Shown here piece after piece: positions 13,185 to 64,000 of a DNA stretch of 64,000 bases. A program made the translations under genes and the position numbers. How positions within the stretch are numbered: the stretch's first letter is position 1; each line of letters starts with the position of its first letter. A model generated the notes under the pieces. The model worked only from the letters and a program-made list of their open reading frames with translations, did not search any database and was not told the origin of the DNA. This DNA comes from Lytechinus pictus (taxonomy: Eukaryota): NCBI RefSeq assembly GCF_037042905.1, contig NC_087250.1:10790001-10854000 (forward strand). Direction: 5' to 3'.

Positions 13185-13478
13185 TTAAAGGAAAGAGTTC
13201 ATCAGCAAGACGGATTTCATCTGACCTCTCTAAAGCAATCTTCAATTCTTCTCTTTCTGTACCAGGTTTTTGCTTACGAAGCCAATCCCGGAGCATGAGA
13301 AGAGTTCCATCATATGTTACATGTTGTGTTTTGTGGTTAGTAGCTATGTATTTCTGTATGTCTTCAGGAGCAAACCGAAGATTTAATCCTAACTTGTCTA
13401 TCTGCGAGTTTTGCGGGACTCTGCTGGCGACCGTGATCAAGATGCTATCAAACTTGTCTTCTGTGGATCTCAAGTTAG
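13185..13478 (-). CDS. ROCO gene exon encoding a complete death domain (ANLRSTEDKFDSILITVA...KLGLNLRF...DIQKYIATN...VTYDGTLLMLRDW...ELKIALE...LADELFPL)
   Basis: tttattccccag|CT acceptor and TTAA|gtaagt donor; 294 nt, phase 1-1, matching the upstream phase-1 donors. Death-fold pattern LG..L.F...I, ML..W, L..AL, LA..L. Confidence 0.88.
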
Positions 13479-15594
13479 CTGGGGAATAAAAACAATACAT
13501 ATGAACCGGTATAAGCAAAAAAAAAAAAAAAATTGCAAAACATTAAAGCAGCGGGATTTCATGAATAAGCCCCCCCCAAAAAAAAATATATATATAATAA
13601 TAATAATAATGTTCATTAAAAAACACTAAAATATATATTGTTAATGTGTAAAGTATTTCAATACCCCCTCTCTCACTCTGTTAAGTTAGTCGCTGTTTAG
13701 GACAGGGACCAATTGCCTATTTCAAGTAGTACAGGTATTGAAATAAAAACATAGGAGGAAAACAAAATGAGGAAAGGATACATATAGGCCCGATAGAAAA
13801 TTGGCTAAACCTTGTTTTTTCATTTATAAAATATTTTTGATTGGTTCTTGTAAATTCGAGGGTGCTGATACACGAATCTGAATGATGCCACTCGTGTAAC
13901 TTTAAGCATTTTCTGCAAATCGGCAAAATTCAATATGGCCGCCAAAATATGGAAATTACCCATGAAAATAATAAAATTGCCCGCATATGGGCTATAAAAT
14001 GATTGAAATCGCGTGGCAGGAGTGACATACTCTTTGAAAAAATGATTTTTGACAAAATATTGAATTTCTTGAAATTCAAAATGGCCGACTTCGGCCCTTG
14101 TATACTTTATTATGTACAATATGAATAGGGAAAAATAATGTTCATAAAAATGAACACTAAACTGAAAAATTGTGATCTATAAACGAAGTAATGTATGAAA
14201 ATCATGATTACTAACGTAATATATTATACATACCAGGCTTTGAGTAAGTATAGCGGGAAGTATTTTTTCGAGGTTTGACTGGCATATTTTGTTTTATATT
14301 GTACATTTAATATGGTAGAACAATAGTCTATACTCTTGTACAAGTGGCTATCCTTCTTTAATCTGAACTTAAATACAACGCGCTGCGCTGAATAATCTAC
14401 CTTTCCCGAAACCACGTGCTAAGCGTAACGCGGATTTGTGCCTGCATCGTCCCTTGACGGGACCGGTGCGCCCGAGAGATTGATTGATCTGCGTCAATGA
14501 TCGATGACGTCAATGATAGAATAGTCGACTATTCCATCATTCACGTCACGGAATAACACATTTTCTTGGGTGGGCGTTTCATTTTCGACATCATCGCAAA
14601 CTAGTTAGAATGTGTTAGGTCACATGATAATATTTAAACCAATCAGCATACATGTACATGATTTAATTTATGTAGGATATTACATTTATTATCATACATG
14701 GGAAAATTGCTTCATTTCGATTTTCAAAAAAGACGCAATGGGGGCCGAAAAAATCATATTAAAAGAGTGAGCAATAAAAAGGATATTATTAAGATAAACG
14801 AGTGGAATACTGACTAAAACATAATTATTAACAAAATATATTATTTAATATGCCATTTATTTGATAAATGCTGTATTTTGACATTCAAAATGACCGCAGT
14901 AGGCCCTATGTTAATTATGTACTATGCGAATAGAGAAACTAACTTTCAGAAAATGCATGAAAATGTGATCTATGAGTAAAATATTGTTTTAAAACATTTT
15001 TTCAAGCAATACTTATTTCTTTTGTCACGCATGAGATAAACGCTGTATTGTGAATTTCAAAACGGCCCCTATACAGTGCGAATACAAAAAACGGGACAGA
15101 TTTGAACAGTATACAAAATTTTGGTTTCAAATTATGATGTCTATATTTCGGTATTAATAGGTGGTCTGAAGTCTAATCTTTGAAATGCCATCAAACAAAT
15201 TTAGTTTCGTTCATGCTTGAGCGAACACGGAATGTTTTTGTCTGGGGTTAAAAAGGAGGCTTGCGCCAAAATGGCATAAAATTATAAATATGATGATCGG
15301 ATTTTCAAATCTGTTTATTTGCTTAAATTGTTCTGTTGTTGTTTCTTTTTAATATGTTCTCTTTTAGCTTTCAGTATTCCTTCTTTAAGCAAAAAAATTA
15401 TTTTTTTCAAAGTATGGGAGAGCGTGTATTTTTTTTCAAATGCTTTCATTGTGTGCTACAAAGGTTTTGGTGCCTATGAACAGTGGAATACAGATGGGCG
15501 GGGCTCGGGGTGTTCCCCCAATTACAAAAAAAGTGGAAAGGAAATCAAATGAAAGATAGAAAGTGAAACATGATTTATTTTCGGAATATTATGT

Positions 15595-17538
15595 AACAAG
15601 TGGAATGCCTCTGGCTGTCTCACCTGCATCATGCGATTCAATATAGCAGCAGTGCTGACTTTGAAAACTACTATAAAATTATTATTCACAAAAAACACAA
15701 TTTATATAATGATACAATGCTACGTTCATTGAGATTTGACCTTAAACTTGTCAGTGATACTTGATTACCCCTATATCCACATTTTATACACTATATCTTT
15801 AAACTTTGAAAGTTATGACAGCAATCTAATAATTACCTCTAAAATTGCCGAAGTTTAATGACCTTAAGTGACCTTTGACTTTGGTCATGTGACCTGAAAC
15901 TCGCATGAGATGTTCAGTGATACTAGATGACTCTTATGTCCAAGTTTTATGAACTAGACCAATATATTTATACAGAGTTATAATGGTAATTCAACAAATA
16001 ACCCCAACATGGCCAAAGTCCTTGACCTTTGACGTTGGTCAAGTGACCTGAAATTCGCACAGGATGTTTAGTGATACTTGATTACTCTTATGTTCAAGTT
16101 TTATGAACTAGACCAATAAACTTTCAAAGTTATCATGGTAATTCAACAAATACCCCCAACTTGGCCAAAGTTCATTGACCTTACATGACATTTGACCTTA
16201 ATCATGTGACCTGAAACTCACACAGGATGTTCAGTGATACTTGATTACTCTTATGACCAAGTTTCATGAATCAGATCCATTAACTTTCGAAGTAATGATG
16301 GCAATTCAACATATACCCCATTATGGCCAAAGTTCATTGACCTTTGAGCTTGGTCATGTGAAACTCGGACGGGATGTTCAAAGATACTTGATTACTCTTA
16401 TGTCCAAGTTTCATGAATCAGATCCATAAAGTTTCAAAGTTATGGTGGTAATTCAGCAAATGTCCCACATGGCCAAAGTTCATTGACCTTTGACGTTGGT
16501 CATGTGACCTGAAATTCGCACAGGATGTTTAGTAATACTTGATAACTCTTATGTTTAAGTTTCATGAATCAAATCCATAAATATTCAAAGTTATGATGGT
16601 AATTCAACATATATCCCCAAATTGGCCAAAGTTCAATGACCTTACATGACCTCTGAGCTTGATCATGTGACCTGAAACTCACACAGGTTGTTCAGAGATA
16701 CTTGATTACTCCTATAGCTAAGTTTCATGAATCAGATATATAAACTTTCGAAGTAATGATGGCAATTCAACATATACCCCATTATGGCCGAAGTTCATTG
16801 ACCTTTGACCTTGGCCATGTAAAACTCGGACGGGATGTTCAAAGATACTTAATTACTCTTATGTCCAAATTTCATTAATCAGATCCAAAAAACTTTCAAA
16901 GTTATGACGGTAATTCAAAAGATACCCCCCACACGACCAAAGTTCATTGACCTTTGACGTTGGTCATGTGACCTGAAATTCGCACAGGATGTTTAGTGAT
17001 ACTTGATTACTCTTATGTCCAAGTTTCATGAATCAGATCCATAAACATTCAAAGTTATGATGGTAATTCAACATATATCCCGAATTTGGCCAAAGTTCAT
17101 TAACCCTAAATGACACCTGGCCTTGGTACGTGACGTGTAACTCAAGCAGGATGTTTAGTAATACTTGATTAACCTTATCTCTAAGTTTCATGAACTAGGT
17201 ATATATATTTTCTAAGTTATGATGACATTTCAAAAACGTAACCTTAGGTTAAGATTTTGATGTTTATTCCCCGAACAAGGTCAAGTTTATTGACCCTAAA
17301 TGACCTTTGACCTTAGTCATGTGACCTGAAACTCAAGCAGAATGTTTAACAATACTTGATTAAACTTATGGCTAAGTTTCATGAGCCAGGTCTATATACT
17401 TTTCAAGTTATGTCTTCATTTCAAAAACTTAACCTTCGGTTAAGATTTGGTGTTGACGCCGCCGCCGCCGTCGGAAAAGCGGCGCCCATTGTCTCACTTT
17501 GCTATGCAATCTCATTCTGCTATGCAGGTGAGACAAAA
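15595..17538 (+). mobile_element. Helentron/HINE-like element carrying a ~150-160-bp satellite array
   Basis: Starts AACAAG. Subterminal inverted repeat gtctcacctgcat (15617-15629) / atgcaggtgagac (17522-17534). About 10 tandem units (gacctttgac...catgtgacctgaaactc...gatacttgattactcttatgtccaagtttcatgaa), a (GCC)n tract and a 3' hairpin. Confidence 0.8.
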
Positions 17539-18233: not shown

Positions 18234-20068
18234 CAGAATAATGATATCGAAATTCAAACAGAACGAGCGATCGAGTATCCATCCCACAGTTTATTTTCTC
18301 GTCGGTGCATATATCGTCTGCTGCTACTCATCATGAATTAATTTGGATACATACATTAATTGGTTCGGACATATCATTTTACTTGTTTGTAAGTTAATGC
18401 AATCACTATTTTAATTATTACATTTCGAAGTTGTTAAGTGAGAGAAGAGACTCTGTATCGTGGACCTTTTCCATTTTTTGGCCTGGCGTTTGGGTGGTAC
18501 GTGCACCGTGCAGGTGCAAAGTAATGTGAGTTGACTAACAACAGTTCACGTTCATTCCACTCTCCATCACCGGCGCAATTCCCCTAATTTTCCTTCTTCC
18601 ATGTCGCTTTGATGTTAACTAGAGCTAGAATCTTCATCATCAATATCTTCTTCTTCAACAACATTTCTTTCGAAATCCAAATCTAGATATAACTTATGTG
18701 TTTTCTTCCATTTCATGATCGAACTCCTCAGTGACAGTGTGGAGAAATCGCACGGACACTGGCATTTGCAGTATAGGTTTTGCATGCTAGTGGAGCTTGA
18801 CATGTGAGAGCCAATCACGTCTATCGTACAGACATACACGCCATCAAATTCGAGTCAATTCAGAGACCGATGCGAGACATATTTCAGGGAGGCATTTCAG
18901 CGCTTTTTAATTGGCGATTTCTACCTTGTGTACTATTTTTGTTATTTTCAAATGACCTAATGATAATCCCCACATCATTACCTTTCCATTGATATAAGGC
19001 CATATGTTTGAATTAATATATTTCTCCTTTAATTTATAGCATTTTGTCTGCAATGTAGGTGATCAATATCACTTTGTCATTCAAATTAGCTGGTACAAAC
19101 CCTTATTAAATTATGTAACATGTGTATAGGGAAACTGATTTTAACAAGAGTAAGAATCGTAAAATGCATGTAACTGTGATTTACCATTAAATATTGTAAT
19201 GAACATGATTTCTAATTTAATACATCAAATATTGGTCATGGAGGTAAAAAATGCTGTACTTTGAAATTCAAAATGGCTGCCGTAGGTCATAAAACTATTA
19301 TGTACATTGTAACTTGCGACATATATTTTTAAAAGAATTCGGTTTTGTTGACTATAAATATTGCATTTAATTGTGATGTAAAGGTGACACCATGGTGTCC
19401 AACGAGATATCATATCTTGTGTAATAAAGGGCATAAATGATTGAAAATGGTCACCATAGGTCCTTATCGTATTATGTACAATTTGAATTGGGACAAATAA
19501 TTTTCACAAAAGTGCATATGGCGGTCATTTTTAATGTTGTAATATACCATTTATCATCTTAATTGCCCAAGATATGATACGTTTTGTTAGAAATCATGTT
19601 TTCAGACAATATTTCACTCATAAAACACCATCTAGTCAAGCAAAGCCAAAATATGTTAAAATCATTTTTCTCAATTCACATTGTACATAATACCGTAAGG
19701 GCCTCTAGCGGCCATTTTGACTTTCAAAATACAGTACTTATCACCTACCTCACAGACAAAAAAATCATACATCTTGTAAGAAATTATGCTTTCAGACATT
19801 ATTTTACTCATGGATCACTATTAGGTGCATCAATGGTACTCACTCCTGTAAATATTTGTTTCCAACTTCTCATTGAACATACAGTCAACGTCTATAGCGG
19901 CCATTTTGAAATTCAAACTACAGTATTTAACACAAACTTGAAACCTGAATGATATATTTCGTTAAAATCATGTGTTTTAGACAGTATCCAATTTATTTAT
20001 CACAAATTCATTCATTAAGTGCTCACTCTTCTGATTTATTTTTGTCCTCTTTCTCATTGTACATTGTA

Positions 20069-20683
20069 CGATCCGATTGACCGTCAGATAGACATATTTT
20101 CGACACTATACCAATTATAATTTCATGTGTCGGGTGAAGGTGGGTTTTGAACAATGACAAGCCGCCATGCCTCAGCTGGATCAAAGGTATTGCTTTGATA
20201 CAGTACACGTATGGGAGAAAGTATACAAATGTGTGAAGTTATACATGTACAACAGCTTTGGCAACTCTTTTATTTAAATATTGTGTGAAAGAAATGGATA
20301 AAGAGAACAATAATAGGCGTAGCTTAAATCAAGGTTCCCCAGAGCTATCTATATCCTTTGGAAAAATTGGTGATGCCGAAAAAATGTCTCTGCCGGGAAT
20401 ATAACCCGGGCCCCCAGCTTTGAACGCCGGTGCCTTAACCCCTAGATCACAGAGACGGGTTAGTGGCTAGGGCGACCCCGATCCGATTGACCGTCAGATA
20501 GACATATTTTCGACACTATACCAATTATAATTTTCTGTATCGGGTGAAGGTGGGTTTTGAACAATGAAAAGCCGCCATGCCTCAGCTGGATCAAAGCTAT
20601 TGCTTTGATACAGTACACGTATGGGAGAAAGTATACAAATGTTTGAAGTTATACATGTACAACAGTTTTGGCAAGTCTTTTAT
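20069..20683 (-). repeat. tRNA-containing ~410-bp satellite, array 1 (1.5 units)
   Basis: cgatccgattgaccgtcagata recurs at 20069 and 20479; same unit as 48150-49413. Confidence 0.9.
20385..20456 (-). pseudogene. tRNA-like cloverleaf in a satellite unit (anticodon position TCA; B box mutated to TTATATT)
   Basis: GTCTCTG/CAGAGAC acceptor stem, CCGGC-GTTCAAA-GCTGG anticodon arm, CCGGG/CCCGG T stem, followed by T6. Confidence 0.75.
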
Positions 20684-21604: not shown

Positions 21605-21830
21605 CTTCTGAATGCTTGTTGAATGCCTTCACGATACGACCCACATTTTCTGCACAGAGATTAATGCAAGTTCCCTTTTCCTTCTTTTCTTCCAGGATAC
21701 GTCTCATGTGAATGAACCCCTTCTTGCCGAATTTGGTACACCGTGTGCAGGGGATCCCGATAGAATATTCAATTCCTCTTGCCCAGAGCCTTTGGAGGCT
21801 TTTCAACGATTCATGTAGATGGTTAATAAC
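21605..21830 (-). CDS. ROCO gene exon, end of COR with CxxC (VINHLHESLKSLQRLWARGIEYSIGIPCTRC...NKHSE)
   Basis: tatcattcag|GTT acceptor and GAAG|gtatga donor; 226 nt, phase 0-1. 'W..G+.Y...IPC..C' is typical of the COR C-terminus. Overlaps ORF 21534..21806. Confidence 0.88.
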
Positions 21831-22329: not shown

Positions 22330-23254
22330 TTTTTCTTTAAATAATTTTATTCATCAAAATATCAACATATATACAATATTTACATACACTCAGTACATGT
22401 AATACACATACCATGCATTCAGTAAAATACTACACCCAAACGCTTATACATAATATAAAACTTTAACTAAGAACATCAACAAAAGTAAACAGTCAAGTGT
22501 AAAACTACCACGGTAACAAGTTGGCACCTTTGTATAAAGCCTATTTCGACGAAAAGGCCCTCCCCCACCATTACTCTAAGCCATGTGATGTACTCACTCC
22601 CTTTCAAACTACCCGCTTATGAATTAAGGCTTGCACACTTGCCAATCTCTAAAATTTATTACTTTCCCTTTAAACCCAAAGCCCCGACCAGGACTGCCAA
22701 GGATAATGGGCCATTCAGCCAATTATGTGACATTCTTGCAATTTCTGAGATGCCATAAAAACATATTGTGAGGTCATGATAACTCACACAAAGTATATTC
22801 TAACTTTACCCCCTTCTATTGAACATAATCTTGACCCTTTTACCCACAGCTTTTCAAACTGTCTCCTAGTTATTCTGTTAAAATCTATCTCTAATCTTAC
22901 TCTTATCTCATTTTTAATTCTCAAAATTAACCCGTCATCTGTTATTCTTTCCTTCGAAAACAAAAACCCGCATCGCTTAGCCCAAATAGCATTTTTTACA
23001 ACGGTAAAAACAAACCAGGTTCGAGGCCAAGTGACCACATTCAAATTTAAATTAGGGAATCCATAAACAAACAATGATTTAACTAATGCGTGATCAAAAC
23101 CCAAATGACGATTTGCAAAATCGTCGACCCAGTCAAGAATTTTACTCAAAGACTTACATTCCCAGAACACATGAAATATATTTTCTAGTTTCCTAGATAC
23201 GCAACTGCTCTTTGACGAGGGTCCTTGAACAGACTGAAAGTGAAGTAAAAACAC
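22330..23254 (-). mobile_element. 3' end of a Tx1/L1-clade LINE (C-terminal zinc-binding region, 3' UTR, A-rich tail)
   Basis: ORF 22784..23254 with ENIFHVFWEC and K.AIW..R motifs; AATAAA and an A-rich end near 22330-22352 on the minus strand. Confidence 0.8.
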
Positions 23255-24108
23255 ATCTCATATAGCCGGGAGGTTTTTAGCAAAAGTTGGTGAACCGCAG
23301 CAGCAGTTTTGTCGGAGAGGTCTAAAAATTGCAAATACGTCATTTGTCCAGAGTTTTATGAAGAAACCGGTGTTATTATTCCCCCATAAAAAAAAATTTC
23401 GTGGTTGTTCTATTTTCTGAAGATCATTTGAAGATCCCTTTCATTTACTTCTTAAATGTTCTGTACGTCATCGATCAAACATATCTTAATCTCATCAGGG
23501 GCCGCGAAACCGGAATTCGAAAATTGATTTTCGGCCTATCTTTCCTGGTTAATATCCAATTCGTCCAATTGCAAACTCGTCTACTCTCGTTTTGTCTACT
23601 ATCAGTTCGTCCACTATTCACATGGTCTAATTGCCAAATCGTCCACCCATCATTTCGTCTAATGACCAGTTAGTTCAATAGCCATTTAGTCCTTATACCA
23701 TTTGGTCTAATTGGACTCAGTGTGTATTGTGCAAAATGAATGAACATGAAGTGGATAATAACTGGTTTTGAGACGAATCGGTCATAGACGAAATGGTGAT
23801 GAAGTGATGACTGGACCAAATGGTTAATAATAATAATATTGATAATGATCATAGGCATTTATATAGCGCGTCTATCTAGAAATATTATATTCCGAGGCGC
23901 ATAAGAAAACAGAGAATTTGGATGAGTGTCAAAGTGCCAATACCTAATACTGTTAGAAAAGATAATACTTCAGCTTAGATTTAAAAGTCTCCAGTGATGG
24001 TATACGGCAGATTATTGCAGAGAGAAGGTGTTGAGGTAGAGAAAACTCTCGCACCATATGCTACACGTGTCATGGGAGTCTTAAGAAGTTGCTGGTGTGA
24101 TGGTCCTA

Positions 24109-26319: not shown

Positions 26320-26394
26320 ATCCTCATTCAGGCTGACCATTGCTTTGGGGCGTGCGCCTTCTTCATTGTCAGGCACTATTGTATATATTGTGAC
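26320..26394 (-). CDS. ROCO gene exon (VTIYTIVPDNEEGARPKAMVSLNED)
   Basis: tgtttgtgtattttag|GTC acceptor and GAT|gtaagt donor; 75 nt, phase 0-0, open frame. Confidence 0.75.
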
Positions 26395-29042: not shown

Positions 29043-29209
29043 CTTGATCTGATTAGGCTCTTCATTATGAATATCGTTGGTCATCTCCATTCTATGATCA
29101 CTATCTATATAGAACACCATTTGCCTGCAGTGAAAAGTTGGAATGAGGGACGGTTCTCTCTCCATTGACCACTTTGCCATTCGAACGTACAATCGGTGCA
29201 AAATGCCAT
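29043..29209 (-). CDS. ROCO gene exon, COR domain (DGILHRLYVRMAKWSMEREPSLIPTFHCRQMVFYIDSDHRMEMTNDIHNEEPNQIK)
   Basis: aaatag|AT acceptor and AAG|gttatt donor; 167 nt, phase 1-0. Splicing rebuilds FLPDGILHRLYVR, the conserved COR motif, across the intron. Confidence 0.9.
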
Positions 29210-29540: not shown

Positions 29541-29652
29541 CTGGTAAGAAGTGATTGAAGTCGATGACAAATTCGATCTCATCTTCTCTCGTAAATTGTT
29601 GTATCTCATCAAGTATAGGGGAAGATCGGCATGGAACAAAAAAACTTCTCTC
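29541..29652 (-). CDS. ROCO gene exon, COR domain (ERSFFVPCRSSPILDEIQQFTREDEIEFVIDFNHFLP)
   Basis: aattgcag|GAG acceptor and CCAG|gttaat donor; 112 nt, phase 0-1. Contains 'FVPC' and the first half of 'FLP.G..HRL'. Confidence 0.9.
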
Positions 29653-34660: not shown

Positions 34661-34834
34661 CACGTTCTCTCGACCTGGAATCTCGCAGATAAGATCAAAC
34701 TTCTTCATCATATCAATAATGCCATCGAGTTGCGCATGCTCTCCTTTAATTTTCGCCAATACAGCGTTGACGATGGCAATGTTAAGTATTCCATTGTTCT
34801 TCAGTTCCTTGTAATGTTTGCCCAGGCCAGTTTG
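34661..34834 (-). CDS. ROCO gene exon, COR domain (QTGLGKHYKELKNNGILNIAIVNAVLAKIKGEHAQLDGIIDMMKKFDLICEIPGRENV)
   Basis: ttgtttcgcag|CAA acceptor and GTG|gtgaga donor; 174 nt, phase 0-0. 'GIL' and 'M.KFDLI' COR motifs. Confidence 0.9.
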
Positions 34835-35506: not shown

Positions 35507-35689
35507 CATTAGTTCGTCGTCGATCACTGTTATGATGTCACCGATGATGGCATTCAGATACTGTGGCCTGAGTACGATGAGCTTACATCCTTGGTGATAT
35601 ATGATATGGCCTGTATCATGAAAGAACTGAAGAATTCTACCCTGCTCTTCTTTATTCTCGATTTGCCATGATTTCATTCTTGAGCGCGC
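35507..35689 (-). CDS. ROCO gene exon, COR domain (ARSRMKSWQIENKEEQGRILQFFHDTGHIIYHQGCKLIVLRPQYLNAIIGDIITVIDDELM)
   Basis: ttttcttttcaaatag|GCG acceptor and ATG|gtttga donor; 183 nt, phase 0-0. Carries the COR signature L.FFHD.G.I.Y ... V.L.P..L. Not in the ORF track. Confidence 0.9.
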
Positions 35690-37139: not shown

Positions 37140-37575
37140 TTGTTTACATTGAGTGATAGCAAGTCTGAAACGAATGCAATTCTCTATTCGAAATTATTAT
37201 TGAAGTTGAGTTACCGTGTGACAAAATAAGTTTGGAGACATCCGCGAATAAAAGAAATGACAGGCTATTTTGATGAATAATTAAAATCATTAATGAATAG
37301 TATGAATAGCAGTGGGCCAAAGGTGACCCTTGTGGTACAACACAAGAAATAATGTTTAATTTCTGATGTATAACCTTCTACTGATCAATCTGTTTTATGT
37401 TAGTTTAATAACTCGCGTACCATTCCAAGGCATTTGCACGCACACCATAACCATGATAATGTAAACACTTCTAAATCAAAATTTCATGATTGATCGTATC
37501 AAAGGCCTTGAAAAAATCAAGGAGTATACCAACACTGTACATGGAATTACCAATAGTATTTGCTACCTGATCAAA
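37140..37575 (-). mobile_element. Decayed CR1/L2-group LINE reverse transcriptase fragment (probably continues at ~36100-36400)
   Basis: Minus-strand remnants LLDFFKAFDTINHEIL, VVPQGS / PLLFILFIND and FADVS. Confidence 0.75.
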
Positions 37576-37941
37576 AATAGCATGAACTCGCGCACCATTC
37601 CACAATGAATGAAATTTCGAAAGCTAGTCGGGGTAGCCCGTTGTCTATACCATTTTAAAGAAATTGAAAAAAGAATATGGACCAAACGCCCGATTTTAGG
37701 AATGTATTCCACAAATGCTGCTGCGTCGTCTGAAAATCTTACAAAAGATTATTATTATTCAAAGAGCTCTTAAGAAGATTTTAGTGAGCAATGGAAAGCT
37801 CGAAATCACTTCGGACGATCTCTGTACAATAATATGTCAAAACGTGGCAAATATGCCAACCTTGATTTAAAGTTAGAAACAACAATGCAAGACAAAGAAA
37901 AAAAAAATTCTTCTTAAATTACAAAAATGACTAAATCTAAC

Positions 37942-38076
37942 CTCTTCCACAGTCATTGTATTTCGGTCGCTACCTTCTAATTCGCAAAGGAATGTATTCC
38001 ACATTATTGGAAAGCTGACTTTCATGTAGTCCGATGTAGAGATGATTACATCTATATGATGCTGGAGGCCATTCAC
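37942..38076 (-). CDS. ROCO gene exon, Roc/COR junction (VNGLQHHIDVIISTSDYMKVSFPIMWNTFLCELEGSDRNTMTVEE)
   Basis: aatcag|GTG acceptor and GAG|gttaga donor; 135 nt, phase 0-0. Contains the 'P..W..F' motif that opens COR domains. Confidence 0.85.
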
Positions 38077-39053
38077 CTGATTTTTTAATGAAAATGATAC
38101 AATTTAGTTATTTCTATTACTTTATGTGTTTGGGAAAAATGGTTTGTCAGTGCATAATTCATAAGAGATCACACGGAAATCTCGAGAGAGAGAGAAAGAG
38201 AGTGTGTAAGCAAAATAGAATGAACAATTTAAGATGAAGATGATGGGGCATAAACAATGCACTCTGCCACTTGTAACCTTGTGTTACCTTTAACCGTTGC
38301 CAGCTATAATGTCAATTACTCACTTCGTTCGCCTTCTTGGAAAATTGCATTACTTTTTTGTAATATTGGAATGTTTGATGATATCCAAGTATAGTCACAT
38401 TTCTGACCCTTTCTTGAACTGAATACAGGTATTAACTTGCAAGAAAAAAAAGATGCCCACTAACATAACAACTTCTTTAGTGATACACTGTTTTTTTATG
38501 GAATCACTAACTATGTAGCCTTAAACCATAGAGATGTATACTAATTACGCTAGAGTGTGGAGTCGCCATTCTTACAGGCATCAGTTAAAATAATAATAAT
38601 GATAATAATAAATCTCAACATTGTGAAAATATATCGATAATATGCATGAATAGTAAAGTGGTACGTATAGTCACATAACAAATCCCTATTGTTCTAAACA
38701 ATAGAAATATGAATTACGAAATATTATTTTTTTCTAAACAATAGTATATGAAATGTTAATAAAGTTATGACTATGGATCAATAAATATCAAATATGATTA
38801 TGAATTATGAAATGTAATTATGAAATATGAAATATGATAAATGGATCAGTAATTACGAAAAATTATATATGAATCGATTATTATGGAAATATGGATCAAT
38901 AATGAACACGTGACAATGAAGTCACGGACTGAGGAACAAATAACGTCATAGGATTGGGAAACATGATGACGACATCCAAAACAAAGTAGAGCAAAATAAT
39001 TGGTGGCAAGCATCGACAAGTGCAAAACGAAAGAAAAGTGAGGAAAATAAAAC

Positions 39054-40702
39054 GGTTACACTTCGTAATTCCGAAACACGTAAATTGCCTTTACCTCGAT
39101 GTTCGTTAATCCGAAAGCGAAAAAGAGTTCGTTAATCCGAACATTGTGGCGTTATTTCGAAGGTTCGATAATCCGAAAACGAAATAAGGTTCGTTGTTCC
39201 GAAGGTTCGTTAACCCGAAAACAAAATGAGGTTCGTTGTTCTGAAGGTTCGTTAATCCGAAAACGAAATAAGATTCGTTATTCCGAAGGTTTGTTAATCC
39301 GAAAACGAAATAAGGTACTTTATTCCGAAGGTTCGTTAATTCGAAAAATGAAAACCGGGAAAGCAGAGGAAGGGAAAGTGTGGTAGTGGAGGGGGAGAAT
39401 CGCCGTTGCTGTTCAATTGTTATGAGGATGGAAAGGCAAAGGCGGCCAAACGAATTTTTGTTTGGGGGCAAAGTAAAAAATGACACTCGTACGTCAAAAT
39501 GGGCACTTTGGTGATATTTTCACCATGAGATTATCATCTGCTTGAAGTCATTGTGTATTTTAAAGTAATTAAGCCTTTTTGAAGTGACTTCTGATTAGGG
39601 AAAGATGTATATTTAGGCTTTTTTTTCACGAGAGAGTATAATGAGCGAGCGGTTTGGAAAAAAATCAAAACTTAAGTTGTAAAACTCGTTTTGGGGGTCA
39701 ATTACTGTTAAAATGGCATTATTGCGAGGTGTTGCTAGCGAATCAAACGTTTGGAAATTTCATGTAGGCCTAATAATAATAATAATAATAATAATATTGG
39801 CATTATTTACCAAGGGAGGCCAATTCAGTTCTGAAAACTGTTCTCCTAGCGGGTCCTGCTATTAATTATCACCCCGGCTTTAGCTGGGCTGCCTAGGCGC
39901 CCAAGGAAGGCATTTAATGATTTTTTTCCCTACCGGGTACCCATTCATCTCACCTGGGTTGAGTGCAGCACAGTGTCGATAAATTTCTTGCTGAAGGAAA
40001 TTATGCCATGGCTGGGATTCGAACCTACGACCCTCTGTTTCATAGTCAAAAGACTATGATCACCTGGGCCACAACGCCCCACATAAAAAGTAAACAATCC
40101 GAGCATTTTTGTAATCATGAAGAAAGGATTAACATTGTTAACACTAGGCGTAACGATCAATAAAGTTTTATTAACATTGATATTCTTTATTTCCATTTTA
40201 TTATGATCATCGTTTAGATTATTCTGATCATCATTAGCATTATTTTTATATTTATTACTAGCAGAAGCTCATATTAAAAATGACATCCCCTCCAATACAA
40301 ATCCTATTATCTGGAGGTTACTCGCACGCGACCAACATAGGCAGCAATTGCTCAGATAAAATCAAAATTAAGACTATGCTTGATCCGGGCGCCTATTCTT
40401 AATGCAATATCTGCTTTGGCCACAGCACACACATGTATCATCGTTCGTTATTACTATTATTGCATAATATCCTGTTATCTTATAATGACAACACCATTCT
40501 TGTTACCAAAATGAGTTATTTTCATTTTCAGAAATACGAACCTTCGGATTAACGAACCTTCGGAATTACGAACCTCATTTAGTTTTCGGACTAACGAACC
40601 TTAGGAAATACGAACCTTCTGAAATACGAACCTCCGGAATAACGAACCTTCGGAATATCCGAACCTTCGGAATAACGAAGATTCAGAATCACAAATGTAT
40701 GC
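39054..40702. mobile_element. MULE-like non-autonomous element with a 9-bp TSD and tandem subterminal repeats
   Basis: aaataaaac duplicated at 39045-39053 and 40703-40711; gaaggttcgttaatccgaa arrays on the left, inverted cgaaccttcgga arrays on the right. Absent from the matching position in the right arm (~45330). Confidence 0.8.
39772..40080 (-). mobile_element. tRNA-derived SINE with a (TTA)n tail, nested in the MULE-like element
   Basis: Minus-strand head GGGGCGTTGTGGCCCAGGTG...GGTTCGAATCCC (A/B boxes); central ggtacccattcatctcacctggg segment resembling the Nin domain; microsatellite tail. Confidence 0.85.
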
Positions 40703-44560: not shown

Positions 44561-45964
44561 ATACGTACCACTTTACTAAAGTTGTACGTATAGTCACATA
44601 ACTAATCCCTATCGTTCTAAACAATATAAATATGAATTATGAAATATTCTATTGTTCTAAAAAGTATAGTCACATAACTAATCCATATTGTTCTAAACAA
44701 TAGAAATATCGAATTTTAGAATGAACAAAGTGATGAAAAAAATAGGTTAAAGAAGTATGAGAATCGTTGATTATTAGTCGAAATATACCATCCGCTCATT
44801 TTATCGATCTATTGCATAATACGCGTGACTGTTCTCCACAAGATGCATGACACCATGGTTTTTTATGGTAATGTTATACAAAGTGATATTCGGTTTTCAT
44901 TTCAATGTATCTCCCTAGCGTTACGCTCTATGAGTTCCTATATAATGGGCAAATTTTCATTTGTGCTTGACCATTCTTTCCTGTAACAAGTCCATGTCCA
45001 TGTATGCCCTGAAATCTCGGAAAATAATTTGACAACGAGCTTAGATGAGTGTGTGTCAAGGTATATGGTTGGTGTTATTTCCAGATAAGTATTATTCACA
45101 TTATGATTATTCACGTTTTAAATTGACCGAGCTTTAGGCTTAATGCCACCATCCGAAAGACTCGAGCCAGGGCTCGTATCCAGGGTCATTGGTGCTTTCT
45201 CTACTTTTCTTCTGTTTCTTCTGTTTTAATTTCGAAACAACATTCATTTGTGAACTATTTTCTGGTTTTGTTCTTGTTGGGGCTTGTAGTTAAAACTTTT
45301 GGAGTTTCTTGTTTTGGATGACGTAATTTCATTTTTTCCTTCACTTTTCTCTCGTTTTGCCCTTGTCGAGGCTTGCCGCCAATTCTGTTGTTCTACTTTG
45401 TTTTGGAAGTCGTCATCATGTTTCACAATCCAATGACGTCATTTGTTCCTCAGTCCGTGACGTCATTGTCACGTGTTTATTATTGATCCATAATTTCATA
45501 ATAATCGATTCATATATCATATTTCATAATTAATGATCCATTTATCATATTTCATACATTTCAATCACATTTCATAATTCATAATCATATTTCATATTAT
45601 TTGATCCATATTTCATAACTTTATTAATATTTCATATTCTATTGTTTAGAACAAAAAATACTTCATAATTCATATTTCTATTGTTTAGAACAATAGGGAT
45701 TAGTTATGTGATTATACGTACCACTTTACTACTCGTGCATATTATTGACATATTTTCACAATGTTGACATTGCGATTTTAATTATTACATATTATCGTTA
45801 TTATTACTTTAACTGATGCCTGTAAGAATATGTATCCCATTAGATGTTTTTTAAAGCATAGAGATATATACTAATAACGCTAGATGGCGTACTTTGTCAA
45901 ATCTATGTGATTACGCGGAGACCGGCCGCCATTATACTCGATAGGTCTTAACAGCCTACCATGC

Positions 45965-46492
45965 CATCCTATTTCACTATTGAATAATGATTATACAATT
46001 TTGGCTAAGATCATTTCATTTAGGTTAAAAACAAGTATTAGACCCAATTATTCATGAAGATCAGTGTGGCTTCTTAAAAGGCCGTTACATCAGCGAGAAT
46101 ATTAGACTGTTTATTGACACAATGGATTATTGTAAATATAGAAATATACCGGGTGTTGCACTCTGTATAGATTTCGAAAAAGCATTCGACATGGTTGATT
46201 GGAAGTTTTTGTATACAGTATTACGTATGTTTGATTTTAAAGAATGTTTTGTACGTTGGGTACAATTGTTATACTCTAACATTGAAGGATGTGTTATCAA
46301 TAACGGATTCTCCTCAAACCCTTTTCCAATAAAGCAAGGAGTAAGACAGGGGTGCCCCCTCTCTCCCTATCTTTTTCTTTTGGTAGTAGAAATTCTAGGT
46401 ATAATGATTCGTCAACATAAGAATATAAAAGGAATCTCCATAGAAAATAATGAATTAAAATTAAGCCAATATGCAGACGATACTGTGATTTT
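45965..46492 (+). mobile_element. L1/Tx1-clade LINE reverse transcriptase fragment
   Basis: PISLLNNDY, DQCGFLKGR, IDFEKAFD, GVRQGCPLSPYLF and YADD motifs; truncated at both ends. Confidence 0.92.
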
Positions 46493-47981
46493 CTCCATCC
46501 CGCCTGCCATGCACGATATGGGGCATGTATACGGATGAGCACAGAACAGAAACAAATTTATGACATATGAGCGCGAAAGCAAATGGAAAAGCAAAATTGT
46601 AAAATAAAGTTCAAATTAACAAAGAATCTATCAAAACTAAGTCAAAACTGCCTATATAGTCCTATAGGGCATAATATATCCTACAAATGATACAGTCCAA
46701 CGATATACATCCCCAATCGTTTTTGCTTCGGTCATAAAATGTCGATGTATTATAAATATGACTTTTATTTTCTGATGATTTGGAAGGGATGAATATTAAA
46801 AATAACATGCAGGCCTTGGCAAATCGTTCTAGGTCCTGCAAATTTAACATGATCTGGTATTCAAGTTGACCTCATAAATTTCATAGGCCCTTTCACAGTG
46901 TCTGATGCATCCGAGACACAAGGTATCGAAAAAAACACGATTGCATTTTTTTTTCAAGTATAGTTTCCAAATTACTATGATGCTGATTGCTGGTAATTTA
47001 TTTCTTTACTTTTGATAAATTTTATAATTTATTTTCAATATAGATCTACACATATAAATCATATATAGAAAAGGGCCTAACTCCTTATCATGGTTTTAAA
47101 CGTCGATGTAACCAACATCACAATAACTCGTCATAAATGACCTTTATTGATAATATTTGAAAATGATTTATGCATTGGTCCAGTTAATTGATAAGTTTAT
47201 GACTTAAATTTCAAATGCTGTCAACCATCTGGTCATATTGATTACTTAAACGTGTGAGCAATTTAGAAATGTTTGTTGGCAGTAAAATTTACATATCAAA
47301 TGCGCGCATGCAGTAGTACAATTTTACAATGTAAAAGAGGCCTAGCAATGGGGTAAAGTGCAGGATGTTTACAGGGTATTATTGACTTGCAAACATTTCA
47401 ATATTTCGGAGAGTAAACAAATTACAATGCGTGTTTGACGCAACATAGAACAATTTCACTTTGATTTTCTGGAAAGTCTAAACTTGATTCACTCCGGCTG
47501 AAATACTATGCAGATCGGCAAACCGGCTGAAATATTCTGTTGATATAATTATGGCCGGCGTTTGTGATCCTATAATGATTGGACCAATATTATGTGAACA
47601 AATCAAGGATAGAATAATAAGAAAGAGAGGAATAAGGAGGAGGAGGATGATAAGAGAAGAAAAAGGGTGGGAAGACTGAGGATATTTGTATTATACTACA
47701 AATATTATTATTACTAAAACTGAGTGTATAAAACCAATTGATAACGATATCATGAAAGAGATTCATAAATGCAAACTTAATAAACTTATCATATAAAAAC
47801 GGTTGCAAAATTGTGAGTACTAAAACTGAACATAATATTATTTGAAGATTGAAAAACTGAAAAAACTTGGATTGCATTGTTAATACTTCCGTAATGTTGC
47901 ACTACTGACGACGGCATGGGGTGGCAATTTGGTGGCAATGGTGACGAATAAATCATACCTGTTCAACTGCAGCTAACTTAC

Positions 47982-48092
47982 CTCATTTGCTCGTGCATAA
48001 CGGTTGTCAAACAATCGAATTGGCCACATGACTTGCTTGCTATAAGGTCTCGATTCGATGAGTTCCTTCAGGACTTTTTCTTTGGAGGCAAC
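47982..48092 (-). CDS. ROCO (Roc-COR-death domain) gene, first exon found in the window: C-terminal end of Roc domain (VASKEKVLKELIESRPYSKQVMWPIRLFDNRYARANE)
   Basis: Acceptor ttcacttctacacag|GTT and donor GAG|gtaagt; 111 nt, phase 0-0. The 'RPY..qV....lFDN' pattern resembles the end of invertebrate Roc domains. Joins in frame to the exon ending at 38076. Confidence 0.75.
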
Positions 48093-53883: not shown

Positions 53884-54294
53884 CACTTTGATGTGTCATG
53901 TATTTCGACTGTCCAAATTTAGTCACGCTGATTGCACCCTAACACGGGAAAGCTTACCTAAAAATGTATGTTTTTGTTACTGTCGAATAAACAACATTTT
54001 GTCATGTCTGCATACCAATCAGATAAACATTTTCAGTTTCCTACCTTTCTTTTGTTAAATAACTTCCATCCTTTTCTTGCAAACGTTCCGACTAGTAGCA
54101 CCATGGGTTCATATTTCGACTCTTTACCAGTGTAGTAAAATAACACGAAATCGTCATTACGGTGTAGCCTTAATTTCGGTGAATGTTACGTAATCTTCGC
54201 ACACCGAATTCGCAGAGCGGCAGCATGGTCGAGTGACTTTTGTAGCCTGTTATTAGTCGTTTCGCGCGTATTTGACACAGAAGCTTGCACCGTG

Positions 54295-62684: not shown

Positions 62685-64000
62685 CTACACCCTGTTGTAA
62701 TGGTTGCCATCCTGGCAACCATATTGAAATCTATAAGTCCTTTTGAAATATCTGATAAGTGCACTTTGGGTCTTTACTGCGAGATTCTCCACTTTACGTT
62801 CCGCATCAGAGATATTTTTAACATTTAATTCAGCAAGTAATAGGGCTCGTTGAATTATAAATCTAGGGCAAACATATAAAAAGTGGTAAATCGTTTCTCT
62901 TTCATTGCAGAAATCACACTTTCCAGTTGTGTGTCTTCCCGTCTTAAAAAGGAAGTCATTCAAACCCAAACCTCCCAAACGTAATCTGTGGATCATTTTT
63001 TCACCACTTTTGTCTGTGCAGAGATAATCAAAGGGTGTTTTTTCTGATACAACTTTCTGGTATTTTCTTAATTCTGAAGTTGACTTGTCCCATCTCTTCT
63101 GCCATTCATTTCTTGCAAGGACTCTTACAATCTTTTTTGTTTCTTGGATATTCAAACCATTCAAACCAATTCTGATCTATACGATGATGTAAAATTTTGC
63201 ATTCTTTTACATTCAATTACCCGCATAGCAGGCACGTAAAAACAAGCAGAGGCATTGCCGTGCACCGGGTCTCTCGAACCATCAGTGTCAATATGGAGAT
63301 TCTCTCTCCACTTTGTATTAATATACTCCACAGTTGTGTTATATTGATAAAAAACGTTATCACTTTTGGATACAAGCTCATGCAGCTTCAATGACACTTC
63401 TGGTGGAGAGAGATGCCAAGGAGGCAAGGGTGTATAAGACTGAAAAGATTCAGTTGTGTAGTATATCTCATCTTCCAAAACTCTCAAACCAAAAGGTTTT
63501 CGTGCTTTCTTATTTTTTTCGTATTCAAATTGCCAACAGTTCTTCAATGAAGATTGGAGTGGGTGTTTGGCATTTTGTCTTATTTTTGCTTTGTAAACCT
63601 TGCTAAGCATGTATCTTCTCAGATCGAGTGGTAATTCACCAGTATCTACCTGTAAGGATTCCAGGGAGGTACCCGGCAACGCCCCTGTGCACAATTTTAA
63701 AGCCTGGTATTGAATAGTCAACAAGAAGTTCTTCACATGATCATGAGCTGAATCATATGCTTCTGCTGCATAATCCAACAATGGCCTGATGACCACTTTA
63801 TAAAAAGTCAAAAGGCTTTTATAACTACTTCCCCACTTAGTTCCCACTAGTCTTTTCATTATATTTATTTTCTTTTTTGCTCTTGTTACAATCATATTTA
63901 TATGTGGTCTCCATGTTAACTTTCTATCCAGTACTACTCCTAAAAATAGATGTTCGTCCTTTTGTGGTAAGGGGACCTCATCTAATTCAATCTGTACACA
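62685..64000 (-). mobile_element. I-group (I/Nimb-like) LINE ORF2 3' part: RT thumb, internally deleted RNase H, CCHC knuckle
   Basis: FLGVVLDRKLTW, IRPLLDYA, IDTDGS...SSYRSEL (RNase H start), then a jump to WQKRW...RLRLG...CDFCNERETIYHFLYVC. Runs off the window end. Confidence 0.9.

Follow-up and report, generated by a model that had tools for sequence, protein, structure and literature searches.

The minus strand of a 64,000-nucleotide stretch of the genome of the sea urchin Lytechinus pictus (positions 10,790,001 to 10,854,000 of contig NC_087250.1, assembly GCF_037042905.1; hereafter the window, with positions counted from its first base) carries a gene with COR exons of the ROCO type and, downstream of them, a single exon that encodes a death domain (DD). 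We argue below that this exon is probably a copy of a DD module that came to lie, as an in-frame cassette, in a phase-1 intron of a gene with COR domains but no detectable Roc. The whole domain had been described in an initial annotation as one symmetric exon, and the sequence and its open frame bear this out: the exon is 294 nt long, with an acceptor AG at 13480-13479 (upstream sequence ...tattccccag) and a donor GT at 13184-13183 (downstream sequence gtaagtac). One of its three frames is open, the two others being full of stops, and since the open frame takes up two bases, 97 codons and one base, both flanking introns are phase 1. The frame lies within an open stretch of 141 codons where the local G+C is about 33%, and yields a peptide of 97 amino acids (P0001, the DD peptide). 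The sequence signature that the initial annotation had pointed out is present at residues 43-65, in the form Y..TN.....VT..GT..ML.DW, with five residues between TN and VT and not the four given there.

The host gene was characterized through a word search with the exon upstream of the DD, which found two L. pictus proteins, P0004 (449 aa) and P0005 (275 aa). Taken alone, the COR exons of the window score below the Pfam threshold; P0004 matches COR-A at 58.0 bits (cut-off 35.3) and COR-B at 36.2 bits (cut-off 27), and nothing else. The best genomic matches of P0004 all lie inside the window, and because it maps there exon by exon, to nine minus-strand exons from 54104 to 21605 with 73-100% identity per exon, we take it to be the product of the window locus in another assembly or haplotype. 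All nine of these upstream exons are intact. Five of the six computed COR junctions are phase 0 and one is phase 1, and two more junctions further upstream, read by eye, are also phase 0, in agreement with the earlier description of the COR exons as mostly phase 0. The L. variegatus protein P0008 (1332 aa) combines Roc, COR-A, COR-B and Death, and P0004 aligns with its residues 786-1184 at E 2e-42; residue 2 of P0004 corresponds to residue 786 of P0008, and P0004 thereby begins at the last Roc strand, behind the G1-G3 motifs. The start of the first-exon product (MVLLVGTF) likewise matches a full Roc-COR-DD protein at its last Roc strand/G4 region.

The rest of a Roc domain was not detected. 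In 248 frames of the minus strand from 14-64 kb of the window, Pfam found no Roc/Ras, kinase, ankyrin, LRR or NACHT, and in P0004 no Roc/Ras, Pkinase or Ank; a regular expression found no P-loop motif, comparison of the first-exon frame with P0008 gave no match for Roc, and none of the 141 matches of a genomic Roc scan (150 of 178 candidates having been scored) lies near the window. The host thus appears to be a ROCO-derived gene with COR-A and COR-B that is Roc-less as far as can be detected within 14-64 kb. It had been called a ROCO GTPase; the COR-A and COR-B matches of P0004 agree with the ROCO part of that name, no Roc was found directly N-terminal of COR, and the label overstates the host. 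Two P0004-like COR loci, 36-63% identical to it per exon, lie on C8 (Table 1). No clear Roc match lies near either of them (the nearest among the scored candidates has an E of 0.77 at 61 kb), and the two loci and the window gene may constitute a small Roc-less COR family.

Downstream of 21605, P0004 continues with seven residues (416-422, from a 21-nt phase 1-1 mini-exon) and then with the tail, whose exon lies just outside the window; P0004 and P0005 both lack the DD exon. Because all three introns involved are phase 1, the DD exon can be included or skipped in frame (G/CT...A/CG with it, G/CG without it), the predicted included product reading ...KHSE-A-[DD]-T-EAPMNRYKDG...stop and the skipped product being of the annotated 449-aa type. 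A minus-strand contig of 1331 nt from sequencing run X1, at depth 30, joins 21605 straight to 13478, leaving no place for the phase 1-1 linker mini-exon that had been proposed to precede the DD exon. The contig omits the 8126 bases in between, whose ends read GT..AG on the minus strand, has no mismatch over 13191-13478, and its upstream piece starts exactly at 21830, the acceptor predicted independently from P0004. The joint looks like that of a spliced mRNA, with the RNA nature of X1 being a guess. The 21-nt mini-exon of P0004, which sits in the isoform without the DD exon, was not found as a translated word or as a 4-of-6 match in the first 21.7 kb of the window or in the 1.2 kb beyond it; the haplotypes may differ here, the copy may have diverged, or the mini-exon may be an artefact of the model.

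Table 1. Features of the window and of related loci. A slash marks a splice border; positions refer to the window unless a contig or locus name precedes them.
Feature	Position	Strand	Remarks
First coding exon, P0004-type model	54045..54104	minus	ATG 54104-54102; product starts MVLLVGTF...
Exon 2, P0004-type model	47982..48092	minus	37 codons, phase 0/0; borders acag/GTT, GAG/gtaagt
Exon opening COR-A	37942..38076	minus	phase 0/0; P0004 alignment; start 38076 read by eye
COR-A exon	35507..35689	minus	phase 0/0; COR-A E 9.7e-6 and P0004 alignment
COR-A exon	34664..34834	minus	phase 0/0; COR-A E 0.0038; end 34664 or 34661
COR-B exon	29541..29652	minus	entered in phase 0, left in phase 1; start 29652 or 29649
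COR-B exon	29043..29209	minus	entered in phase 1, left in phase 0; P0004 alignment
COR-B exon	26320..26394	minus	phase 0 at both ends; P0004 residues 314-339, 100% identical
Last COR-B/tail exon	21605..21830	minus	phase-1 donor G/gtatga; P0004 residues 338-415; X1 contig
DD exon	13478 to 13185	minus	294 nt, phase 1-1 (2 nt + 97 codons + 1 nt)
Terminal exon (tail)	C6:10789154-10789066	minus	just outside the window; acceptor tatag/CG, phase 1
P0004-like COR locus	C8:30026857-30100679	plus	
P0004-like COR locus	C8:12990206-13009531	plus	
Roc/COR-A/COR-B/Death locus	C9:3.91-3.96 Mb		
Roc/COR-A/COR-B/Death locus	C6:26.62-26.72 Mb		
Two-exon DD gene	L011:6098-7840	plus	
Two-exon DD gene	L013:2645-4339	minus	
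DD exon at L012	L012:4804-5082		phase-1 donor
TIR-like frame at L012	L012:8961-9581	plus	207 aa
Tandem repeat	15340-17340	plus	
tRNA-like sequence	20385-20456	minus	within 20009-20675
Frames similar to each other	20.0-20.7 kb and 48.1-49.4 kb		
Mirror-image repeat arrangement	about 38.8-45.5 kb		in an intron of the COR gene
His/Pro-rich tandem repeats	41.25-42.65 kb	plus	
His/Pro-rich tandem repeats	43.87-44.6 kb	minus	
Mirrored flanking frame	38846-39055	minus	
Mirrored flanking frame	45327-45533	plus	
Reverse-transcriptase/zf-RVT-like frame	22784-23257	minus	inside an intron of the COR gene
Reverse-transcriptase/zf-RVT-like frame	37144-37623	minus	inside an intron of the COR gene
Reverse-transcriptase/zf-RVT-like frame	46029-46538	plus	
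Reverse-transcriptase/zf-RVT-like frame	62685-64000	minus	upstream of the first exon

The intron that holds the DD exon seems to be the older of the two: in the two COR paralogues on C8 the homologous exon ends in G/gta at the same codon position, and this shared phase-1 donor implies that the phase-1 intron is older than the DD. No DD match lies near these paralogues among the genomic matches listed. We would therefore read the DD exon, from its phases and borders, as an in-frame cassette in an old phase-1 intron. That the exon could be skipped in frame had been suggested from the start; the phases allow it and it probably happens, as P0004 lacks the exon, with depth over the exon near zero in raw RNA runs. 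Inclusion is represented by the X1 contig, with its guessed RNA origin, and exclusion by P0004, which comes from another assembly.

The identity of the domain is carried by its relatives and by its predicted fold. On its own, the DD peptide falls short of the gathering score of Pfam PF00531, and a PDB search returned spurious rows only. A search of the L. pictus genome (812 Mb) with the peptide gave 146 matches, of which 96 have E < 1e-3 (self included); 143 are without a stop, and nearly all cover residues 5-96 within one short open frame. The Pfam Death model matches at least 150 places in the same genome, and these include places 47-51% identical to the DD peptide that score 32-34 bits (cut-off 22.6). 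We aligned the peptide with 61 genomic copies (alignment A1, 62 rows) chosen to include close paralogues, copies linked to NACHT or to ROCO genes, and the best Pfam matches; where the first codon is TTG or CTG the alignment tool gives M, so that no column but the first can be affected. Of these 62 sequences, 56 match PF00531 at E <= 0.01, and the profile of A1 matches the death domains of RIPK1, FADD, Fas and PIDD at 5e-12 to 1e-9. The AlphaFold (AF2) model of the peptide has a pLDDT of 93.1 and six helices; in Foldseek its top 11 rows are all DDs (TM 0.63-0.73, at E values of just 0.08-0.35), and in VIA-align it superposes on the FADD DD with a Z of 12.4 and an rmsd of 2.2 over 88 residues, rows 1-17 all being DDs and the first CARD following at Z 9.0. 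Through the profiles of its paralogues and this predicted fold, we accept the peptide as a complete six-helix death domain of a divergent clade, which upholds the original assignment. It keeps 15 of 15 clade-invariant residues, and its exon has dN/dS values of 0.26-0.48 against six paralogues, similar to the values between paralogues, at dS values of 0.63-1.14; the copies are old and constrained.

Eleven genomic copies are 56-66% identical to the DD peptide, and they occur in genes of several builds. In L011-L013, L015 and L016 the DD exon contains a start codon, retains the phase-1 donor and is followed by a long second exon (the type of protein P0002). In L017-L019 it encodes the second domain of tandem-DD genes (P0012 type) and ends in a stop, L018 and L019 looking broken. 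L009 and L010 are of the DD-only type (P0015), the AG being lost in L009. In L014 the exon is internal and 1-1, has the same borders ag/GT...A/gtaagt as in the window, and belongs to a 365-aa gene of the P0016 type. The acceptor sequence is recognisably homologous in all 11 of these close paralogues and the phase-1 donor is shared with six of the 11; both 1-1 borders are kept as those of an internal exon in just one (L014), so that the expectation of a 1-1 boundary shared among paralogues holds for the acceptor and in part for the donor, and for the complete internal exon in a single case. A phase-1 donor is also the commonest prediction after these DDs by a home-made splice-site heuristic. 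DNA likeness between the window exon and its paralogues ends within 15 nt of the exon ends, and no homology of the flanking introns was found beyond that. The features expected of an exon-shuffling module are found together here (one exon, equal phases, borders kept in unrelated genes and a phase-1 recipient intron), and the same exon with homologous borders in unrelated genes supports the earlier view of the DD as a shuffled module. We also considered the DD exon as the first exon of a P0002-type gene, and rejected this since the downstream part of P0002 has no counterpart in the window.

Two side observations concern the close paralogues themselves. A two-exon gene family (P0002 and the genes at L011 and L013 in Table 1) consists of an N-terminal DD exon and then an exon of 560-580 aa; this second exon contains a B-box in L011 (E 1.9e-5) and has no Pfam match in L013 or L015. 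At L012, the frame 4 kb downstream of the DD exon has a weak match to TIR_2 (E 7e-4, below the cut-off), and the two could form a MyD88-like DD-TIR arrangement.

In a tree of the 62 rows of A1 (93 columns), a split with 99/98 support separates 14 rows from 48. The 14-row side contains five top Pfam matches, seven NACHT-linked DDs, and L030 and L031, which are the DD exons, of a different and canonical kind, of true Roc-COR-DD genes collinear with P0008; the window DD, ten NACHT-linked DDs and the remaining rows are on the 48-row side. Within it, the window DD belongs to a 12-member clade (support 100/97) of genes of different build (DD-only, tandem-DD, internal-DD and DD/B-box). This bears on one account of the DD behind the COR-B domain, namely that it is the ancestral C-terminal DD of a DAPK1-like or Roc-COR-DD gene that has diverged fast. 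In P0008, too, the DD comes after COR-B, and the DD exon of L030 also has a phase-1 acceptor predicted by the heuristic. Against such vertical descent, the 99/98 split places the window DD apart from L030 and L031, and forcing it together with them costs 34.5 log-likelihood units (p-AU 0.001); BLASTP of the DD peptide against P0008 finds nothing at the DD; the window DD is 56-66% identical to DDs of non-ROCO genes; and the two nearest COR paralogues, those on C8, have no DD match nearby among those listed. We consider vertical descent very improbable. The separation from ROCO death domains on which the original proposal depended is therefore borne out, the comparison being with L030 and L031 and not with a named DAPK1 orthologue, none of which was identified.

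The initial annotation had proposed instead that the domain is of the type found at the N-terminus of sea urchin NLR proteins, and that its move to a ROCO GTPase links ROCO and NLR signaling through homotypic binding. There is some substance to the likeness. Of the 17 NACHT-linked DDs sampled, 10 fall in the 48-row group of the window DD. By a comparison made by hand, 24 of the 146 genomic matches have a NACHT match 0.5-13 kb downstream of them on the same strand. The motif is present in the NACHT-linked copies L046 and L047, and the best NACHT protein in the library, P0077, is 43% identical at E 8e-21. The closest relatives, by contrast, are not NLRs: none of the nearest clade is a verified NLR, and although L014 has a NACHT frame 5 kb downstream, its DD is part of the P0016-type gene, whose end lies 3.6 kb short of that frame. 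NACHT-linked DDs are more distant (22-33% identity in the genome, at most 43% in the library), do not form a single clade and need 8 changes on the tree; forcing the window DD together with the ten on its side costs 194 units (p 5e-9), although those ten are not a clade themselves. The domain thus shares with NACHT-linked DDs a broad group expanded in urchins, which the motif marks as a whole, and does not group with them to the exclusion of others, so that NLR type does not stand as its specific origin. With no Roc found there is also no GTPase to couple. We regard the NLR derivation as improbable, and a link between ROCO and NLR signaling as pure conjecture.

A profile of the 24 closest rows matches 440 representative proteins at E <= 0.001 among 1.84 billion. 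We ran Pfam (E <= 1e-5) on the 53 proteins of at least 300 aa among the best 150 profile matches: 13 contain ZU5, nine NACHT, seven Death only, two Caspase and two Ig; CUB, Ankyrin, Kinase, HOIP-like RBR, BIR-RING and fn3-NHL occur once each; 14 have no match; and none has Roc or COR, which speaks against a DD inherited along with the ROCO part of the gene. Nine of the ten library relatives that were looked up are sea urchin proteins. In the nine NACHT proteins, a point in favor of the NLR derivation, the DD is mostly N-terminal, and those looked up are NLR-like proteins of Strongylocentrotus purpuratus; the ZU5 proteins (13 of 53, 50% identity) and other builds are equally close or closer. 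By these comparisons, the DD belongs to a sea-urchin-expanded, promiscuous clade of single-exon DD modules.

Our preferred reading is that this DD module was copied, together with its splice sites, into a phase-1 intron that already separated the last COR-B exon from the short terminal exon of a ROCO-derived COR-A/COR-B gene, and we think it more likely right than not, if by no means certain. COR is a dimerising element in ROCO proteins. The isoform that includes the DD would give a COR scaffold a homotypic death-fold docking surface, which the skipping isoform would not have; its product may act as a GTP-independent adaptor or decoy in the urchin DD network, with splicing as the toggle of its function.

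A number of observations weigh against this reading. Concerning the domain, the DD peptide alone has no Pfam Death match even at E <= 10; the 24-row profile matches solved DDs in the PDB weakly, at E 0.06-0.35 (ankyrin-1 DD at 0.06, Fas DD at 0.07), its best row being an unrelated protein; the VIA-align Z of 12.4 is just below the caution line of the tool, about 13 for helical bundles; and the window DD is the longest branch of its clade (0.4). The context labels of the tree are mostly by coordinates: NACHT linkage was assigned by coordinates and not from gene models, and the names and linkage of the paralogues come from coordinates and a few annotated proteins. Concerning the host, the Roc-less call is negative evidence, both for the frames of the window and for the genomic scan. 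Concerning transcription, the X1 contig has 12 mismatches in the 226 bases of the upstream exon (21605-21830), run X1 also covers intron stretches at similar depth, and a retrocopy or a deletion in the X1 individual could yield the same joint between 21605 and 13478. The contig ends at 13191, six bases short of the predicted donor, and no read or contig covers the donor after 13185, so the junction of the DD exon with the terminal exon is unobserved. None of the runs recorded as RNA contains the DD exon, and three raw RNA-seq runs with the same species label have a depth of 0-0.07 over it and next to no depth over the gene. The lack of the DD in P0004, which derives from another assembly, could reflect a haplotype without the exon and not splicing.

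Several of these observations would also fit a decaying or neutral exonisation, in which the gene is a truncated ROCO remnant and the DD exon a functionless passenger, rare or limited to some haplotypes. Such an account draws on the failure to find Roc, the near-zero depth in the three RNA runs, the lack of the DD in P0004 and P0005, the long branch of the window DD, and the decay seen in other members of the clade (an upstream stop in L018 and in L019, the lost AG in L009). What it leaves unexplained is that the exon has an open frame and canonical splice sites, keeps all clade-invariant residues, has the low dN/dS noted above over a dS of 0.63-1.14 and a confidently predicted fold, and that the nine upstream exons are intact and the X1 contig joins the DD exon to the last of them in frame. 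We judge a neutral passenger rather unlikely, though less so than an NLR derivation. About as doubtful is a bolder version of the insertion, namely that a Roc-less COR protein has rebuilt the ROCO-DD layout by capturing an independent DD in the intron where its relatives carry the canonical one, now splice-switchable and without a GTP switch. If this were true, the gene would exemplify the convergent replacement of a domain and a COR that functions in the absence of Roc, which is rare, its dimeric COR scaffold being plugged on demand into an urchin-specific network made up of DD-only adaptors, ZU5-DD proteins and DD-NLRs.

Under the cassette reading that we prefer, the locus shows at base-pair resolution how sea urchins build up their expanded set of death domains: a single 1-1 exon that brings its own splice sites and fits any phase-1 intron recurs in unrelated genes, at their start, in their middle or at their end. 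For the biology of ROCO proteins, the host deserves some attention as a COR-A/COR-B gene without detectable Roc and, if the DD isoform is real and regulated, would offer a handle on the role of COR alone. The case bears on no long-standing open question.

Several other features of the window are listed in Table 1. The tRNA-like sequence (Rfam tRNA at 44.4 bits; ARAGORN 'SeC, anticodon tca') is in an intron stretch with a depth of about 5,700-6,900-fold in the three RNA runs, where read starts accumulate at 20069, and translated frames there resemble those of a second region; the element at 20.0-20.7 kb is probably a transcribed SINE family headed by a tRNA. A further intron contains His/Pro-rich tandem repeats in a mirror-image arrangement, in which the flanking frames are also mirrored. 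The tandem repeat closest to the DD exon has a read depth of 18-140-fold (first mate on the plus strand); there are numerous internal joints, and one joint 'goes back', a pattern suggestive of a copy number that varies between individuals or of satellite transcripts. The four reverse-transcriptase/zf-RVT-like frames look like retroelement debris.

Parts of this arrangement are known from other systems. The DAPK1 group of ROCO proteins, with an N-terminal CaM-type kinase and ankyrin repeats ahead of Roc-COR, is defined by an added death domain (PMC6337361); in that group and in P0008 the DD lies after COR-B at the C-terminal end, as in the window gene, and the COR domains are homologous. The window gene differs from these in having no detected Roc, kinase or ankyrin and a DD from another clade, and in its DD exon, which lies inside the gene as a 1-1 cassette with a short tail exon after it and is not terminal; it does not belong to the DAPK1 group. 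The two Roc/COR-A/COR-B/Death loci of the L. pictus genome correspond to the P0008 type in domain content. Roc and COR are normally described as an inseparable tandem (PMC6337361). The nearest relatives of the domain, at 60-65% identity, are the Lytechinus proteins P0015 (100 aa, DD only), P0012 (195 aa, tandem DD), P0016 (365 aa, internal DD) and P0002 (622 aa, N-terminal DD), which share with the window DD the clade and a homologous acceptor, a phase-1 donor or both; none has COR, and the exon carries a start codon in the P0002 type and a stop in the P0012 and P0015 types. The ZU5-UPA-DD proteins P0017 and P0020 of L. variegatus (ankyrin/UNC5/PIDD type) have a C-terminal DD of the same clade, 50% identical, behind ZU5 where the window gene has COR. 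The S. purpuratus NLRs P0077, P0064 and P0033, whose DD is N-terminal, are in the same broad DD group and have the motif TN...GT..ML.DW, but at 29-43% identity they are not its sister group, and NACHT and LRR are theirs and not the window gene's.

Shuffling of symmetric exons within ROCO genes also has a precedent. Brown-algal ROCO genes are described in which exons of symmetric phase are shuffled and alternatively spliced (PMC11378527); there, 72-bp phase-2 LRR exons lie upstream of an intact Roc-COR, whereas in the window one phase-1 DD exon lies downstream of a Roc-less COR. The expansion of multigene families of innate immunity in sea urchins is likewise described (PMC2575513). A keyword search of the open-access literature returned no paper on this gene, on a COR-DD cassette or on the phases of echinoderm DD exons. 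What would be new, judged from sequence comparison, is the combination of a Roc-less COR gene and an in-frame cassette encoding a DD of independent origin, in a tidy but fairly ordinary case of exon shuffling.

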